DNA from: a virus
Taxonomy: Duplodnaviria; Heunggongvirae; Uroviricota; Caudoviricetes
Virus record (IMG/VR): IMGVR_UViG_2529292977_000014
Length of the DNA: 5,162 bases
Reading direction: 5' to 3' (one strand)
In this document: piece by piece, positions 1-5,162 of the stretch
Layout: every line of letters starts with the position of its first letter
Numbering within the stretch: the stretch's first letter is position 1
Translations under genes and position numbers: made by a program
Notes under the pieces: model-generated
Database searches by the model: none
What the model was told of the DNA's origin: nothing
What the model saw: only the letters and a program-made list of their open reading frames with translations

Positions 1-234
1 ATGCGTGATGATCGTTTTAATTCCCTGAAACAGGAATTTTCCGGCGTTCCTGATGATGCGGCTGATGCGCTTTCGTCAATGCCAGAGCTTATTAGAGCGG
101 CTTTTTTCTTACTTTCCACGAGAGAATATAAATCAACGGGGCTTGATGTACTGAATATCGCCGCCGATTATGCGGAATATGTGGCAGAGGCGCGTTATAG
201 AAGAAAATTTCCTGAGGATGTAAGCCATGCGTGA
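1..234 (+). CDS. hypothetical protein (possibly 5'-partial; window starts at an in-frame ATG but the true start may lie upstream)
   Basis: Open frame 1-234 (77 aa) ending at TGA 232-234; same strand as and overlapping by 8 nt the next ORF; no recognisable motif. Confidence 0.35.
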   Translation: MRDDRFNSLKQEFSGVPDDAADALSSMPELIRAAFFLLSTREYKSTGLDVLNIAADYAEYVAEARYRRKFPEDVSHA

Positions 235-460
235 TATTTACCACCAAACAATAGACCGCGCATTTCTTGCACTTTCTCACAGTGAAAACATGATGGAAAT
301 ATTTCGCATATGGCTTGAAACACTTGGCGACAATGAACGCGACAAACAAAAATCAAGAATTGCCACGGCATTAATAACGCTTCTTGAGCCTGTAATAATG
401 GAACTGCAAGAAATAGATCTATTGCACGACAGATATAAAGAACAGCACACCGGAGAATAA
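227..460 (+). CDS. hypothetical small protein
   Basis: ATG at 227 preceded by GAGGA (213-217) at about 9 nt; 77 aa; overlaps the upstream ORF stop, suggesting operon coupling; no recognisable family. Confidence 0.45.
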   Translation: MRDIYHQTIDRAFLALSHSENMMEIFRIWLETLGDNERDKQKSRIATALITLLEPVIMELQEIDLLHDRYKEQHTGE

Positions 461-465
461 AAATA

Positions 466-765
466 ATGAAACTTAAATATTCTGGCTTAACTGCCAGTGG
501 CAACACTCACCCTAAATTTACGCGCGGTGATATTTACCGCGACCAGTACGGCGGCACGGTAATGATTAAGGGCGTGGAAGAACGGCGCGTAACCTACCGC
601 CGTGAAGGTTACGAATATGATTGCGTGATGCCTGTTTATCAGTTCCGGCGTGATTTTTCTCTGGTACAGACCGCGCCGCATAACGTGCCCACCAGCAACG
701 CCAGGGCACGGGCAAACATCCAGAAGCTGAAAACCATGGTTAACGGATTCAGGGGCAAGAAATGA
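466..765 (+). CDS. hypothetical protein, translationally coupled to downstream replication gene
   Basis: ATG at 466 preceded by GGAGA (450-454); 99 aa; its stop overlaps the start of the next gene as ATGA (762-765); basic, Arg/Tyr-rich; no recognisable family. Confidence 0.5.
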   Translation: MKLKYSGLTASGNTHPKFTRGDIYRDQYGGTVMIKGVEERRVTYRREGYEYDCVMPVYQFRRDFSLVQTAPHNVPTSNARARANIQKLKTMVNGFRGKK

Positions 766-2162
766 AAAGCGCACCGAACTTAAAAAAACAGCCTTACGAC
801 AAGATGACCGAAGTCATTATTTTTGCGGGTAGTGATGCCTGGGCACATGCGAAACAGTGGCAGGAACAGGACGGGCGACTGGCTGGCGATAATGTGCCTC
901 CCGTTGTGCTGGCTGATGATCAACTGGATGAACTGGCAGAACTGAGAATCATCGACGAGGGGCGCTATTGTGTCCGGCTGTACAAGGCAGGCCACATCAG
1001 GCCATCAAATATTAATGCCATTGCGCACAAGCTGGCGGCGGCGGGTGTAACTGATGCGAATTATTACCCCGAAGGGATGCACAGCCATATGCGGGAGAAC
1101 TGGCGCGAATACCTGGAACGGGTGCGCGGGAAAGAGCCGGCGGAAGAAAAAAACCACCAGCGAAAAACCACGCTACCGATGAGCGTTGGATCTACCGGAT
1201 ACGACACGCAACTGGATTACGTGGTTAAGGGGATTATTCCGGCGGTATCGCTATGCAGCATATACGGGGCTAGCGGGTCCTATAAATCATTCCTTGCCGG
1301 ATCGTGGGCGTGCCATGTTGCCACTGGTCGCCAGTGGGGAGGCCGCAGGGTTGCACATGGTGCGGTTCTCTATGTGGTTGGTGAAGGCGGTATAGGTGTT
1401 CCGCGTCGTGTAAAAGCCTGGGAGGTTGTGCACGATGAGCAGGTGAAAAATCTGTATCTGGTAAACCGCCCCATCTTTCCGGCTGCCCCGCTTGATGTTG
1501 ATGAAATGGTTATCGCTGCCCGTCAGGTGGAGCGGGAAACGGGTAAACCTGTACGCATGATTATTCTGGATACGCTGGCGCGTTGCTTTGGTGGGAATGA
1601 TGAAAATGATTCCCGTGATATGGGGGCGTTTATCCGTGGTTGTGACGAACTGAAACGACGCACAGGGGCCACGGTGCTGGTGGTTCACCATTCCGGCAAG
1701 GATGAGACGAAAGGCGCGCGCGGTTCCAGTGCATTTCGTGCTTCGCTGGATGCTGAATACCGGATACGCAGGGAGGACGCAGGAAGCGAAGCGCTGGTTA
1801 TCTCATGCACCAAAATGAAGGACGCGGAGGAACTCAAAGAAGCCGCATATGACTTACGCGTGGTGGAGCTTTTTACCGACGCTGACGGTGAATTAATCAC
1901 GTCGCTGGTGGTGGTGGATGATCCGCGCCCTCCTGTTGAACTGGAGCGCATCGAGGAGGCAGGGAACAAGACGGAAAACCATACCGCGCTATGGGGGTGC
2001 ATCCGTTCACGCACACAGAACGGCGACAAGTGCACGATCCCGCTGTTACGTGATGACATGAAAAAGCTGGGGTATGAAATGAAAAACTTCCGGCGCTGGC
2101 TGTACAAGCTGGAAAAAGATGGGGTTATTCGTATCGATGGGGATGATGTAGCGCCGCTATAA
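762..2162 (+). CDS. replication helicase/initiator, RecA-like P-loop NTPase (RepA/DnaB-like, AAA_25-type) with a putative C-terminal DNA-binding domain
   Basis: 466-aa ORF. Walker A GASGSYKS at aa 169-176 (nt 1266-1289); Walker B-like hydrophobic run ending in Asp, MIILD, at aa 266-270; LVVHHSGKDETKGARGSSAF motif at aa 306-325, typical of RepA-like helicases; basic C-terminal region (aa ~400-466) resembles a winged-helix origin-binding domain; iteron array begins at its stop codon. Confidence 0.75.
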   Translation: MKSAPNLKKQPYDKMTEVIIFAGSDAWAHAKQWQEQDGRLAGDNVPPVVLADDQLDELAELRIIDEGRYCVRLYKAGHIRPSNINAIAHKLAAAGVTDANYYPEGMHSHMRENWREYLERVRGKEPAEEKNHQRKTTLPMSVGSTGYDTQLDYVVKGIIPAVSLCSIYGASGSYKSFLAGSWACHVATGRQWGGRRVAHGAVLYVVGEGGIGVPRRVKAWEVVHDEQVKNLYLVNRPIFPAAPLDVDEMVIAARQVERETGKPVRMIILDTLARCFGGNDENDSRDMGAFIRGCDELKRRTGATVLVVHHSGKDETKGARGSSAFRASLDAEYRIRREDAGSEALVISCTKMKDAEELKEAAYDLRVVELFTDADGELITSLVVVDDPRPPVELERIEEAGNKTENHTALWGCIRSRTQNGDKCTIPLLRDDMKKLGYEMKNFRRWLYKLEKDGVIRIDGDDVAPL

Positions 2163-2353
2163 AAGTGAGGAGCAAAAGCGAGGGGGATAGAAAGAGGGCC
2201 AAAATTAGCCCGCTCTCCCTCACTTTTCGACCTGTATACATCCTCAAAAGTGAGGGGTAAAAAAATACTTATGAAACACACACATAGAAAAACCGAAAAT
2301 CCCAACTGCGACGAAGTGAGACGCTTGAAAAAGTGAGGCGAAAAAGTGAGAGG
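2161..2353. repeat. iteron-like repeat array; candidate origin of replication
   Basis: Exact AAAAGTGAGG at 2161-2170, 2246-2255 and 2329-2338; exact inverted copy CCTCACTTTT at 2218-2227; degenerate copies at 2174-2183 (AAAAGCGAGG), 2342-2351 (AAAAGTGAGA) and 2312-2321 (CGAAGTGAGA); A+T-rich tract 2256-2300 between copies; located immediately 3' of the helicase gene. Confidence 0.6.
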
Positions 2354-2362
2354 TTGCGAGAA

Positions 2363-2614
2363 ATGACCCAAAAACGCAGAGACAGAACAGAGCCAAAATA
2401 TAAAGCGTTAGACATGACTGAGCACACCTTAAAGGTGGCAATCAGAACGATAGACCGCCACACGCGGGAAGGATACGCGAAGGAACATCCCGACCTGATA
2501 AGCGCATTCATGACCACGGCGGCGGCAAACTTTGCCACGCTGACAGAACGGGAGATTGCCGAAGCGGAACAGGTAACAACCATCAACGTTAAAACCGGAG
2601 AGGTGGAATTATGA
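2363..2614 (+). CDS. hypothetical small protein, coupled to ssb
   Basis: ATG at 2363 preceded by GAGAGG (2348-2353); 83 aa; stop overlaps the ssb start as ATGA (2611-2614). The six-frame track extends this frame to 2333 (GTG), but the ATG with an RBS is preferred. Confidence 0.5.
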   Translation: MTQKRRDRTEPKYKALDMTEHTLKVAIRTIDRHTREGYAKEHPDLISAFMTTAAANFATLTEREIAEAEQVTTINVKTGEVEL

Positions 2615-3021
2615 CGGCACAGATAGCCGCTTACGGGCGGCTGGTGGACGACCCGCAGGTAAAACAGACCAGCAAGGGCACACCGATGACGCTGGCGCGT
2701 ATGGCGGTATCTTTGCCATGCAGCCAGGCACAGGACGGACAGGCGACGTTATGGTTATCGGTCATCGCATTTGGCAAACAGGCCGGCTTCCTGGCTAAAC
2801 ATCAAAAAGGCGATGTTGCCAGCGTATCCGGCACGATGCAGGTAAGCCAGTGGACCGGACAGAACGGAGAAACGCGGCAGGGCTGGCAGGTTATCGCAGA
2901 CAGCGTAATCAGTGCCCGCGCGGCACGTCCAGGCGGGAACAGACGCAAAACCACAGGCACACAGGGTAATCAGCCACCAGCGGGAGGCGATGACCCTTAC
3001 GGTGATGATATTTCGTTCTGA
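2611..3021 (+). CDS. ssb: single-stranded DNA-binding protein (SSB), short form
   Basis: 136 aa. The N-terminal OB-fold pattern parallels E. coli SSB (GRLVDDPQV vs GNLGQDPEV; LWLSVIAFGKQA vs WHRVVLFGKLA; SQWTGQNGETR vs RKWTDQSGQDR); Gly/Pro/Gln-rich linker; acidic C-terminal tip DDPYGDDISF resembling the SSB DDDIPF tail; RBS GGAGAGGTGG at 2596-2605. Confidence 0.8.
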   Translation: MTAQIAAYGRLVDDPQVKQTSKGTPMTLARMAVSLPCSQAQDGQATLWLSVIAFGKQAGFLAKHQKGDVASVSGTMQVSQWTGQNGETRQGWQVIADSVISARAARPGGNRRKTTGTQGNQPPAGGDDPYGDDISF

Positions 3022-3031
3022 GGGGGTGACG

Positions 3032-3304
3032 ATGGTACATGACCGCATAGCGGAGGAACTGGAGGCGAAAGGCTTTTACCGGAGGGCGGCGGCGCGATGG
3101 GGTGAAGTCATGCAGCTGGTGGAGACAGACAAGGAACGGCATCACATCACGATGCGACGGCTGGAATGTTCAAGGAAGGCACAGAGGGCACCGGAGCCGC
3201 CGGATAATTTCGGAGACCTGAAAAAGGCAGTCGATCGCACTTATGCCGAAATGGGTATAGATGGTGCTGGTGATGAAATATGGCGCAATTACCAGGACAG
3301 CTAA
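3032..3304 (+). CDS. PerC-family-like transcriptional regulator (Pch/PerC homologue), tentative
   Basis: 90 aa; ATG at 3032 preceded by GGGGGTGA; N-terminal motif EELEAKGFYRRAAARWGEVM matches my recollection of the conserved PerC/Pch motif (LE-KG-WRRAA-RW); size typical of the family; followed by an intrinsic terminator. Confidence 0.55.
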   Translation: MVHDRIAEELEAKGFYRRAAARWGEVMQLVETDKERHHITMRRLECSRKAQRAPEPPDNFGDLKKAVDRTYAEMGIDGAGDEIWRNYQDS

Positions 3305-3310
3305 TCAAAC

Positions 3311-3334
3311 AGCCGGAGAAATCCGGCTTTTTTT
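3311..3334 (+). terminator. rho-independent terminator (T1)
   Basis: Stem AGCCGGA (3311-3317) / TCCGGCT (3322-3328) with loop GAAA, followed by a T-run to 3334; 7 nt after the stop of the PerC-like gene. Confidence 0.7.
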
Positions 3335-3430
3335 GCACCAGTTGAAACGGTATGGCGCATTACCGGGTTTTCGTCACGGTCAGGCATAGTTACTATCTGA
3401 AACAAACAGACACAACAGAGGAAAAAAACA

Positions 3431-3655
3431 ATGCCGATGAAATTTGATGAGATATTAAAACAGCGTGATAAATACCATGCTGACAACATGGAGACGATGA
3501 GCATCAATGATTACCGCGCATTCCTGGAGACGGGCGCACTGATTGAAAAGGATCAGCATGGTTTTGTGAGATGTGCTCTATCCGGTGAAATGCTGGCGGT
3601 AAATCCTGAACAGATAGATGCATTGATAGAATTTCTGAAAGAGATCAGAGACTGA
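3431..3655 (+). CDS. hypothetical small protein (orphan, terminator-bracketed cargo gene)
   Basis: ATG at 3431 preceded by AGAGGA (about 3416-3422); 74 aa; acidic; own upstream intergenic region (3337-3430) and bracketed by terminators T1 and T2/T3; no recognisable family. Confidence 0.5.
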   Translation: MPMKFDEILKQRDKYHADNMETMSINDYRAFLETGALIEKDQHGFVRCALSGEMLAVNPEQIDALIEFLKEIRD

Positions 3656-3674
3656 GCCAGCACACAGCACACAT

Positions 3675-3697
3675 AGCCGGAGCAATCCGGCTTTTTT
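3675..3697 (+). terminator. rho-independent terminator (T2), near-duplicate of T1
   Basis: Stem AGCCGGA (3675-3681) / TCCGGCT (3686-3692) with loop GCAA, T-run 3692-3697; 26 of 29 nt identical to the T1 region. Confidence 0.7.
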
Positions 3698-3703
3698 GCG
3701 CCC

Positions 3704-3745
3704 AAAAAAAGCCCGATAAGGTCAGAGGGTTCTTATCGGGCTTTT
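3704..3745. terminator. second, possibly bidirectional, intrinsic terminator (T3)
   Basis: A-tract 3704-3710, perfect 10-bp stem GCCCGATAAG (3711-3720) / CTTATCGGGC (3732-3741), 11-nt loop, T-run 3742-3745. Confidence 0.6.
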
Positions 3746-3821
3746 GCATATGAGGTTTTTGGATGCACTGGCGTTCGTGATCGGGATAATCATTTCATAA
3801 TTTGCAACATAACTCAATATC

Positions 3822-3872
3822 ATTGCATAAAATGCAATTCTGATTATAATCAGGACTGGATAAACATCCAGT
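3822..3872 (+). promoter_or_regulatory. candidate repressor- or activator-controlled promoter with three palindromic operators upstream of the capsid operon
   Basis: Consensus -10 TATAAT at 3845-3850 inside a perfect 14-bp palindrome CTGATTATAATCAG (3840-3853); weak -35 TTGCAT (3823-3828, 16-bp spacer) inside palindrome ATTGCA-N5-TGCAAT (3822-3838); third palindrome ACTGGAT-N4-ATCCAGT (3855-3872) near the predicted start site; AT-rich intergenic region following two terminators. Confidence 0.45.
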
Positions 3873-3906
3873 TATGATTTTTTTAGTCGAAGAGGAATTT
3901 CTTACT

Positions 3907-4113
3907 ATGGCTGAAGAGAAAAAAAGCGGTGTTTCGGTGTACATAAGCCCCGAAATCGTGGAGGTGCTCAAGCAGCGCCACAAAAAAAACTATGAAGCTG
4001 GCGTTGCGGCTGGACTGGATCCGCTGATGACGCCGGAGCCGTCGATAGGTTCACTTGTACGCTCTTATTTACTTGCGGCGCTTGGGATGCATAAAAATTA
4101 TGGGGGTGAATAA
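3907..4113 (+). CDS. hypothetical small protein preceding the capsid gene (possible capsid-accessory protein)
   Basis: ATG at 3907 preceded by AAGAGGA (3890-3896); 68 aa; stop TAA overlaps the capsid ATG (TAATG, 4111-4115). The track ORF begins at ATG 3874, which lacks an RBS and sits inside the operator palindrome. Confidence 0.5.
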   Translation: MAEEKKSGVSVYISPEIVEVLKQRHKKNYEAGVAAGLDPLMTPEPSIGSLVRSYLLAALGMHKNYGGE

Positions 4114-5162
4114 TGGCAGGCAAAGCAACGGCACTTAACACTAACCAGCTTTTCATGTACCTGAATCGCGGGGATATTGCGGATTTTAAATTCAGCCCTC
4201 TGTTTACCACGCTGTTTTTCCCGAACGTGGCGACATTCAGCACGCAAAACATCATGCTGGATACCCTGGACATTGAAGAAGTCACCATGTCGGCGTTTTG
4301 TTCGCCTATGGTGGGTAGCCAGGTTCAGCGCGATAAAGGGTACGAAACCAGCACAATCAAACCTGGCTACATGAAGCCAAAGCACGAAATCGATCCAACG
4401 AAAACCATCATGCGCATGGCTGGAGAAGATCCGGCACAGCTTAACGACCCTACCTATCGCCGTATGCGCCTGATTACTGGCAACATGCGCCGCCAGATAA
4501 ACGCCATTAAGGCACGCGTGGAATGGCTGGCGGTGAATGCGGTAACGACCGGAAAAAACATCATTGAGGGCGAAGGCATAGAACGCTATGAAATCGACTG
4601 GAAAATACCGGAAAACTGCATCATAGAGCAGGCCAAGGGTAAAAAATGGTCCGAGCAGGATAAAGACATGCACGACCCAATCTATGACATCGAGCTTTAT
4701 GCTGATCAGGCTGGTTGCCCCGCAAACGTCATGATTATGGGCGCTGAGGTATGGCGCACATTACGCAGCTTTAAAAAATTCCGTGAGCTGTACGATCTTT
4801 CCCGTGGTTCAGAATCCGCCGCCGAACTGGCCTGTAAAAACCTGGGCGAAGTGGTGAGCTTTAAAGGCTATCTTGGTGATCTGGCCCTTATCGTCTATTC
4901 CGGCAAATACACTGACAGCGATGGTACCGAAAAATATTTCCTTGAGCCTGATTTGCTGGTCCTGGGTAACACCAACAATAAAGGGCTGGTGGCCTATGGT
5001 GCGATAATGGATCAGGAAGCGGTAAGAACGGGCGCTGCGGCACTGGGGATGGCGGATATCTCTGATGTGATGATTGCTCAGGGCCTGCTGTTGCCTGCGA
5101 TTGTGGTGCTGGGGCTAAATATCTGGACCACCAACGATAACGCGCTCTATGCGTCGGGTTTA
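4113..5162 (+). CDS. major capsid protein, lambda gpE-like (Phage_cap_E family), 3'-partial
   Basis: Open frame from ATG 4113 to the window end (350 codons, no stop), RBS GGGGGTG at 4102-4108. Strong motif-by-motif correspondence with lambda gpE as recalled: FKFSPLFTTLFF vs FKFDPLFLRLFF; KPGYMKPKHEIDP vs TPGYVKPKHEVNP; DPTYRRMRLITGNMR vs DPAYRRRRIIMQNMR; KWSEQDKDMHDP vs EWSKRDKSTYDP; SFKGYLGDLALIVYSGKY vs SYKGMYGDVAIVVYSGQY; VLGNT in both. Confidence 0.85.
   Translation, partial: MAGKATALNTNQLFMYLNRGDIADFKFSPLFTTLFFPNVATFSTQNIMLDTLDIEEVTMSAFCSPMVGSQVQRDKGYETSTIKPGYMKPKHEIDPTKTIMRMAGEDPAQLNDPTYRRMRLITGNMRRQINAIKARVEWLAVNAVTTGKNIIEGEGIERYEIDWKIPENCIIEQAKGKKWSEQDKDMHDPIYDIELYADQAGCPANVMIMGAEVWRTLRSFKKFRELYDLSRGSESAAELACKNLGEVVSFKGYLGDLALIVYSGKYTDSDGTEKYFLEPDLLVLGNTNNKGLVAYGAIMDQEAVRTGAAALGMADISDVMIAQGLLLPAIVVLGLNIWTTNDNALYASGL

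Follow-up and report, generated by a model that had tools for sequence, protein, structure and literature searches.

Introduction

The closest described relative of the locus analysed here is the satellite EcCICFT073, a classical Gram-negative phage-inducible chromosomal island (PICI) in which the gene for the initiator protein Pri-Rep (WP_000761835/AAN79964) is directly followed by an origin of replication (ori) that contains iterons. The EcCICFT073 rep gene together with ori maintains a plasmid in DH5alpha (PMC6092414), and for an ori cosmid in MG1655 the CFT073 'primase' gene, provided in trans, is both necessary and sufficient; this 'primase-ori' pair already serves as a conditional replicon that carries payloads for base editing in vivo (PMC11338833). 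We were interested in the corresponding initiator, Rep, that is encoded in a 5,162-nucleotide stretch of DNA from a record assigned to Caudoviricetes (IMG/VR, IMGVR_UViG_2529292977_000014), hereafter the window, and in particular in the domain at the N-terminus of this protein, hereafter the N-domain. Positions 1-5035 of the window match at 100% an Escherichia coli O157:H7 island located between roxA and phoQ. EcCICFT073 lies at this site in the CFT073 chromosome and shares the gene order, which makes the window the O157:H7 allele of this satellite. The two alleles share the scaffold, the roxA|phoQ site, an upstream DUF4222 gene and the N-domain (62% identity over about 125 aa), whereas the motor consists of D5_N, DUF5906 (superfamily 3, SF3) and Pox_D5 in EcCICFT073 and is of the RepA/AAA_25 type here.

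Databases and papers refer to the Rep proteins of E. coli PICIs as 'Pri-Rep' or 'DNA primase', yet they contain no findable primase domain, which raises the testable question of how these satellites are primed. The Rep and PriRep5 proteins encoded by pathogenicity islands of Staphylococcus aureus (SaPIs) are likewise self-loading initiator-helicases with a C-terminal winged helix that reads iterons 3' of rep, and the function of their N-terminal domain is also unknown (PMC9371898). They differ in belonging to MCM-like and SF3 families of Gram-positive hosts, and in SaPIs, unlike in the islands studied here, a primase is recognisable, encoded separately or as part of a fusion. Pfam searches on 41 N-domain family members and a profile search of PDB sequences revealed no sequence relation between these proteins and the N-domain.

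The alpha protein of satellite P4 is a single-polypeptide initiator-helicase with the same D5_N, DUF5906 and Pox_D5 series as the D5-type carriers of the N-domain. It has Zn_Ribbon_Prim (aa 30-66) and Toprim_3 (aa 210-299, EGYATA) where the PICI Reps have the N-domain, in line with the statement of a first-pass annotation of the window that initiators of satellites and plasmids often carry primase-derived or helper-interaction domains fused to the helicase core. Profile comparison detected no similarity between P4 alpha and the N-domain. RepA of RSF1010 (1g8y) shares with the window protein a RecA-fold ATPase core of the superfamily 4 (SF4) type, both matching Pfam AAA_25; it consists of a 279-aa core only, without an N-domain or a C-terminal winged helix. 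RSF1010 has a separate primase (RepB') and initiator (RepC). Proteins of the T7 gp4 type also link an N-terminal module to an SF4 RecA-fold helicase, this module being a Zn-ribbon and a catalytic Toprim domain with a conserved Glu and Asp cluster, residues that are absent from the N-domain.

Here, we report that PICI replication modules consist of a constant N-domain and swappable helicase-ori cassettes. One constant small domain in front of four unrelated helicase classes points to a common host handle, and such a handle could explain how helicase-plus-origin exchange occurs among satellites without loss of replication competence.

Domain architecture of Rep

The features of the window on which the analysis rests are the following.

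762..2162, plus strand: rep gene (open reading frame, ORF; phrog_2850) for the 466-aa initiator-helicase, composed of the N-domain, a linker, a RepA/AAA_25 core and a predicted winged-helix-like C-terminal domain
762..1133, plus strand: N-domain, aa 1-124 (AlphaFold2, family alignments)
1134..1202, plus strand: linker, aa 125-147, of variable length, with a predicted local distance difference test score (pLDDT) of 40-68; site of the recombination junctions between backbone and helicase cassette
1203..1706, plus strand: RepA-like RecA-fold ATPase core, aa 148-315 (AAA_25, Pfam PF13481)
1959..2159, plus strand: C-terminal domain, aa 400-466 (full-length model, pLDDT about 90)
2161..2351, no strand assigned: putative ori, in which AAAAG(T/C)GAG(G/A) is present six times, as two sets on either side of an AT-rich stretch
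1128..2434, plus strand: swappable cassette that runs from the linker through the helicase core, C-terminal domain and ori into the 5' part of the next small ORF (blastn)
466..765, plus strand: upstream DUF4222 gene (Pfam PF13973, E 1.6e-24), overlapping the start of rep by ATGA

In the O157:H7 island, the rep product carries the annotation 'helicase RepA family protein' (WP_000833628.1); its match to phrog_2850 extends along the whole protein (E 3e-267). The only Pfam match in Rep is AAA_25 at aa 148-315 (148.5 bits against a cut-off of 27), and a sequence search of the PDB returned RSF1010 RepA 1g8y only (aa 150-321, E 0.0055). The Walker A motif begins at aa 169, as the first-pass annotation had noted, and takes the form of a variant, GASGSYKS (aa 169-176, window 1266-1289). 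A profile score above threshold, the Walker A motif and the similarity to RSF1010 RepA place Rep among the RepA/AAA_25 (SF4-like) helicases. In the Walker A variant, Tyr replaces the last Gly of the P-loop consensus GxxxxGK[ST], and the motif is invariant in 20 RepA-type homologues.

The full-length AlphaFold2 model of Rep, built from a shallow alignment, was poor overall (pLDDT 64.8), with low confidence at residues 123-134 and 147-173; it reproduced the fold of the N-domain. A fold search with this model confirmed the RecA-like core, with matches to RadA, Rad51 and T7 gp4; the best PDB match was T7 gp4 5ikn (E 4e-4), at a template modelling (TM) score of 0.17 for this low-confidence model. 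At the C-terminus, the model contains helices at 405-419, 426-435 and 443-452 and strands at 456-459 and 462-465, and three helices followed by a beta hairpin suggest a winged-helix-like fold for aa 400-466.

The first-pass annotation had delimited an unassigned domain of about 165 aa before the Walker A motif (762-1265). The lack of an assignment stands, in that aa 1-147 have no Pfam or NCBIfam match, and both strings quoted in its support occur in the protein (KMTEVIIFAGSDAW, aa 14-27; VVLADDQLDELAEL, aa 48-61). The length requires correction: the folded domain comprises about 124 aa (762-1133), aa 125-147 form a low-confidence linker and the ATPase model starts at aa 148. AlphaFold2 modelling of aa 1-140 with a 41-sequence alignment gave a mean pLDDT of 91.5 and a predicted TM score of 0.82, the ordered fold spanning residues 1-124 with elements b18-22, a26-40, b48-50, a52-56, b70-75, a81-93, b98-102 and a115-124. 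The N-terminal tail K-x-A-P-N-L-K-x-Q is ordered as well. This confidence, together with the low-confidence linker that separates the domain from the core, rules out a disordered region or a piece of the ATPase fold, and the prediction shows aa 1-124 as an autonomous, compact alpha/beta domain of an undescribed family.

Four N-domain positions are invariant in the family alignment (A4, G23, A26 and L55), and P5, E17, P47, G77 and A92 reach at least 90% conservation. Acidic residues are conserved at two positions only, E17 (98%) and E112 (88%), and no alignment position of the N-domain holds a conserved His, Cys or Asp. The family motifs, all present in the window protein, are K-x-A-P, E-h-h-I-h-A-G-x-x-A-W, P-P-V-x-L-x-x-x-Q-L and an A-G after strand 3. 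The median isoelectric point of the family is 6.2 and its median net charge is -1; a DNA-binding role of this near-neutral to acidic domain is unlikely.

A small family fused to four helicase classes

None of 41 diverse family members has a Pfam match in the N-domain, even at E<10, the Rep N-terminus has no NCBIfam match, and the family profile found no match among PDB sequences. The family corresponds to the N-terminus of phrog_2850 and to positions 84-190 of phrog_864 (Rep aa 3-129 match the latter with E 4e-14) and carries no curated name. A Foldseek search of the PDB with the N-domain gave nothing significant (best E 0.16, TM at most 0.42), the insignificant matches being generic Rossmann, flavodoxin and anticodon-binding-domain folds. 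In BFVD, the best match and the sole structural neighbour with E<0.001 is A0A6J5LID1, an uncharacterised 112-aa protein of an uncultured caudovirus (E 4.7e-4, TM 0.64 on the target); the N-domain fold may thus also occur as a free-standing phage protein. Literature searches found no study of the N-domain and no truncation, interaction or biochemical data on it.

An exhaustive profile search of 1.84 billion representative proteins yielded 127 clusters with the N-domain, which is always N-terminal and starts within the first ~13 residues of every member found. The N-domain is not a chance feature, because these 127 clusters all have it at the N-terminus and its AlphaFold2 fold is confident. With aa 1-158 as the query, a word-indexed search recovered 'DNA primase' proteins of E. 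coli and Shigella that share this N-terminus and carry D5_N, and Pfam analysis of full-length members revealed fusions to four cores, namely AAA_25/RepA, D5_N+DUF5906+Pox_D5 (SF3), DUF927 and a VapE-like core. No Toprim, archaeo-eukaryotic primase (AEP) or zinc-ribbon domain was detected in the full-length members scanned with Pfam.

The hosts belong to Enterobacteriaceae (Escherichia, Shigella, Salmonella, Klebsiella and Enterobacter) and Pasteurellaceae (Haemophilus, Mannheimia, Avibacterium and others). Of 5426 complete E. coli genomes, 1820 contain detectable N-domain DNA, the maximum being six copies in one genome. The N-domain family, which has no Pfam entry, would be a specific marker of PICI-type replication modules in the two families of bacteria.

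Several members stand in unusual contexts. In some E. coli genomes, the N-domain runs directly into the single-stranded DNA-binding protein (SSB) of the island (P0016, P0018, P0082 and P0085) or into the major capsid protein (P0074 and P0091); these chimeric ORFs look like internal deletions in decaying islands. Two records deposited as phages contain PICI-type modules, with integrase, transcriptional regulator, N-domain Rep and capsid genes: L002 (LR881103, 'Escherichia phage vB_KppS-Ant', 16.5 kb) and L003 (PQ569648, 'Klebsiella phage P12620-1', 106 kb). Of these, vB_KppS-Ant looks like a capsid-forming satellite, not a phage. In two Haemophilus-like metagenome contigs (L013 and L014, positions 6796-8728), a gene for a 67-aa AlpA protein is directly followed by one for an N-domain Rep of the D5 type, the locus adjoins an IS1595 transposase and host transporter genes, and no integrase or capsid genes were found within 7 kb; the locus may be a stripped-down or decayed element.

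Exchange of helicase-origin cassettes

The 10-mer AAAAG(T/C)GAG(G/A) occurs six times at 2161-2351, against 0.06 copies expected from shuffled sequences. The copies start at 2161, 2174, 2218 (minus strand), 2246, 2329 and 2342, right after the rep stop codon, and form two sets that flank an AT-rich stretch, the layout published for Gram-negative PICI origins (PMC6092414). This repeat region is probably the origin of replication of the island.

When the window was compared with the CFT073 island by blastn, positions 1-1127 aligned at 84%, 2435-3255 at 92% and 3663-5035 at 92%, and no DNA similarity to this allele of the same chromosomal site was detected across 1128-2434. Comparison of the window with two further loci, L007 (D5-type) and L008 (DUF927-type), gave the same pattern, with breaks at 1153 and 2415-2435; between L007 and L008 themselves, divergence sets in after codon 140. 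The 5' junctions accordingly map to aa 122-140, just after the N-domain, and the 3' crossover lies inside the small ORF at window 2333-2614. Because the breaks bracket the stretch from the helicase core to the start of the next small ORF, the helicase core, the C-terminal domain, ori and the start of this ORF move together as a single cassette. What stays with the PICI backbone is the N-domain and the upstream DUF4222 gene; the 5' crossover zone is the linker that follows the N-domain. The island scaffold is common to all E. coli helicase types, and alleles of the island differ completely in their helicase-plus-ori cassette, which is of the RepA, D5/SF3 or DUF927 kind.

The iterons are AAAAGTGGGG in L009 (RepA-type), ACTGTTCACC in L007, TAACCCGCA in L008 and CTGTCTACC in CFT073, those of the window being AAAAGTGAGG as opposed to the CTGTCTACC-like repeats of EcCICFT073. 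The N-domains of L007 and L008 are 100% identical over 122 residues while their iterons are unrelated, so the N-domain does not determine origin specificity, which travels with the helicase and its C-terminal domain. A role of the N-domain in origin recognition is ruled out on the same grounds, the iterons following the type of helicase and C-terminal domain. Because the iterons co-vary with the C-terminal domain of Rep and not with the N-domain, we infer that the C-terminal domain is the iteron reader.

A candidate adaptor to the host replication machinery

The N-domain remains constant while helicase class and origin change, and its function is therefore most likely independent of both. The published plasmid experiments constrain the partner: since the CFT073 Rep, whose N-domain is related to that of the window protein, suffices with ori for replication in E. 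coli, any essential partner of the N-domain must be a host factor or DNA. No recognisable primase was found elsewhere in the island either, Pfam searches having detected none in the Rep proteins and none in the eight small island ORFs without an assigned function, and the remaining island genes carry non-primase annotations.

We tentatively favour the view that the N-domain is a non-catalytic adaptor that couples interchangeable helicases to one constant host partner, possibly DnaG, and we give this reading a probability of about 0.38. Host priming or replisome machinery would be the leading partner candidate, with DnaG first, the reason being that no primase is recognisable in these replicons, which nevertheless run on host factors. 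In such a scheme, the C-terminal winged helix would bind the iterons, the helicase core would load itself at the AT-rich region, and a ring or tier of N-domains would then recruit the host factor that starts DNA synthesis. If the N-domain is a handle that captures host primase, any helicase-plus-ori cassette joined to it would be a plug-and-play replicon. The function of the N-domain bears on the host range and containment of the CFT073 'primase-ori' replicon.

Three considerations weigh against the adaptor. The published plasmid assays all used Rep with the N-domain intact (PMC6092414, PMC11338833). The D5, DUF927 and RepA cores have N-terminal tiers of their own in other systems, so an adaptor is not strictly needed for hexamer assembly and the N-domain could be regulatory. 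Finally, host DnaB and DnaG could take over after origin melting without direct recruitment.

Comparison with primase domains

The first-pass annotation had offered two readings of the N-domain, a primase remnant or a module that docks a host or helper protein. Docking is the one that survives, with a helper-phage partner less likely than a host partner, and a remnant finds no support at the sequence level. In its full form, this alternative holds that the N-domain is a Toprim domain of the DnaG or P4 alpha type that has lost its catalytic residues and now serves mainly as a structural spacer or N-terminal tier. The N-domain does occupy the exact slot of the P4 alpha Zn-ribbon and Toprim_3 before D5_N, its b-a-b-a-b-a-b order of elements is compatible with Toprim, and G23 and G77 follow b1 and b3, where Toprim has EG and DxD..G. 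The first-pass annotation had also noted, as speculation, a loose resemblance to a degenerate Toprim-like pattern, with a hydrophobic run followed by G-x-D and a later acidic DDQ; sequence comparison gave no support for it. Toprim and AEP Pfam models found no match in the 41 members at E<10, and in hhalign the N-domain family profile reached 0.3% with P4 alpha and 0.2% with a Toprim_3 profile of the P4 type, the latter built from 27 sequences of low diversity (Neff 2.1). Where Toprim has the Glu of 'EG', at the C-terminal end of strand 1, the N-domain has Ala22-Gly23 (FAG), position 22 being Ala in 78% of members and never a conserved acid; where Toprim has DxD, K/R/Q-A-G follows b70-75, with no conserved Asp. 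The DDQ is variable in the family, only Q54 and L55 being conserved there. An alignment of the N-domain to the P4 alpha Toprim made by eye looked suggestive and did not survive hhalign.

Structural comparison is more equivocal. The Toprim fold is defined by a four-stranded parallel sheet of order 2-1-3-4, and about nine DnaG/Toprim phage primases are among the top 40 BFVD matches of the N-domain; these matches are weak (E 0.03-0.6), with TM about 0.3, and the top 50 PDB matches in Foldseek include no Toprim structure. Moreover, a mere spacer would not be expected to keep its fold between Enterobacteriaceae and Pasteurellaceae at about 25% identity. Toprim descent is thus unsupported by sequence, whether by Pfam, by the profile search of PDB sequences or by hhalign, and weakly hinted by structure, and we regard a degenerate Toprim as unlikely.

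The archaeo-eukaryotic (Prim-Pol) primases are no closer: there is no Pfam match, nothing corresponds to the DxD and sxH motifs in a family without conserved Asp or His, and the doubly wound alpha/beta pattern of the AlphaFold2 model is unlike the AEP fold. Judged from the alignment, an active primase of a known type is very unlikely, because E17 and E112 are the only conserved acids, no His, Cys or Asp is conserved and the 'EG' and 'DxD' positions read otherwise. The match of Rep to phrog_864, which is labelled 'DNA primase', was considered as evidence for a primase and set aside. This family consists of D5-type PICI Reps, and P4 alpha aligns with it only through the helicase part (residues 329-762), so that the 'primase' names trace to the C-terminal part shared by the D5/P4 family. 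The names 'Pri-Rep' and 'DNA primase' probably misdescribe these proteins.

Other possible functions

The N-domain could instead act within Rep, either as an extra N-terminal ring for hexamer assembly and self-loading or as a Rossmann-like switch that senses a small ligand or is autoinhibitory. N-terminal tiers are common in replicative helicases, and the three-tier ring of SaPI Rep includes an N-terminal domain whose function is unknown (PMC9371898). The b1-G-x-x-A loop and the G77 loop resemble the phosphate- or nucleotide-binding loops of Rossmann-like proteins, and generic Rossmann, flavodoxin, REC and SLOG folds make up its structural neighbours; there was, however, no match to a ligand-binding family. 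A single ring-forming domain would also need to suit four unrelated ring architectures, in which the D5_N and DUF927 regions already supply collars. An intramolecular role of this kind appears doubtful.

A less probable partner than a host factor is a protein of the helper phage or of the island itself (DUF4222, the island SSB or the small downstream ORF), which the N-domain would dock to control induction or interfere with the helper. In E. coli, the DUF4222 gene is translationally coupled to rep and precedes it, and the small ORF and the SSB gene follow it, with all three helicase types; all of these genes lie on the backbone side of the junctions. In the Haemophilus and Mannheimia members, however, AlpA, in some cases directly, or other small ORFs are upstream of rep, and neither DUF4222 nor SSB is encoded nearby, so that either protein is unlikely as an obligatory partner. 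DUF4222 sequences are 33-37% identical where N-domains keep 76-78%. A helper-phage or island-encoded partner is less likely because the CFT073 homologue with ori replicates without a helper or other island genes (PMC6092414, PMC11338833) and because the neighbouring genes are not co-conserved in Pasteurellaceae; we consider such docking improbable.

That the N-domain is an active minimal primase of a new kind, lacking the canonical acidic triad, would justify the names 'DNA primase' and 'Pri-Rep' and would suit its primase position in four architectures, the lack of another recognisable primase in the island, the sufficiency of Rep and ori for replication (PMC6092414, PMC11338833) and the conservation of the acidic E17 and E112, but is highly improbable for a domain of only ~120 residues with no zinc-binding motif, no acidic triad and no conserved His or Asp, in which E17 lies at the N-terminal end of b1 and not at the C-terminal edge where Rossmann-like active sites sit, and which is encoded by genes whose 'primase' names derive from another part of the protein.

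The island and its neighbouring genes

The island reads in one direction, in the int-alpA-...-rep arrangement of PICIs, and its attachment site and scaffold are as in EcCICFT073. Its genes are, in order, those for the integrase, an AlpA-like helix-turn-helix protein, Icd-like proteins, small ORFs, DUF4222 and Rep, followed by the small ORF, SSB, PerC, the major capsid protein, a decoration protein and the small terminase. Rep followed by an origin with two iteron sets around an AT-rich region is the replication module described for Gram-negative PICIs (Fillol-Salom 2018, PMC6092414). The DUF4222 gene is part of the conserved backbone in E. coli and adjoins the N-domain in all three E. coli helicase types.

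The last 127 bases of the window (5036-5162) diverge from the O157:H7 island, the match to which ends at 5035, and resemble at 89% 'Escherichia phage ECO95 1-6-1', a short record that carries no annotation. A small ORF at 3431-3655 is flanked by a pair of near-identical terminator-like hairpins (AGCCGGAG-A-ATCCGGCTTTTTT), at 3306-3333 and 3670-3697, with a spacing of 364 bases. The island-encoded SSB (window 2611-3021) ends in the C-terminal tip DDPYGDDISF, compared with the host-type DDDIPF, and the set of SSB-tail-binding proteins that it recruits could differ from that of the host.

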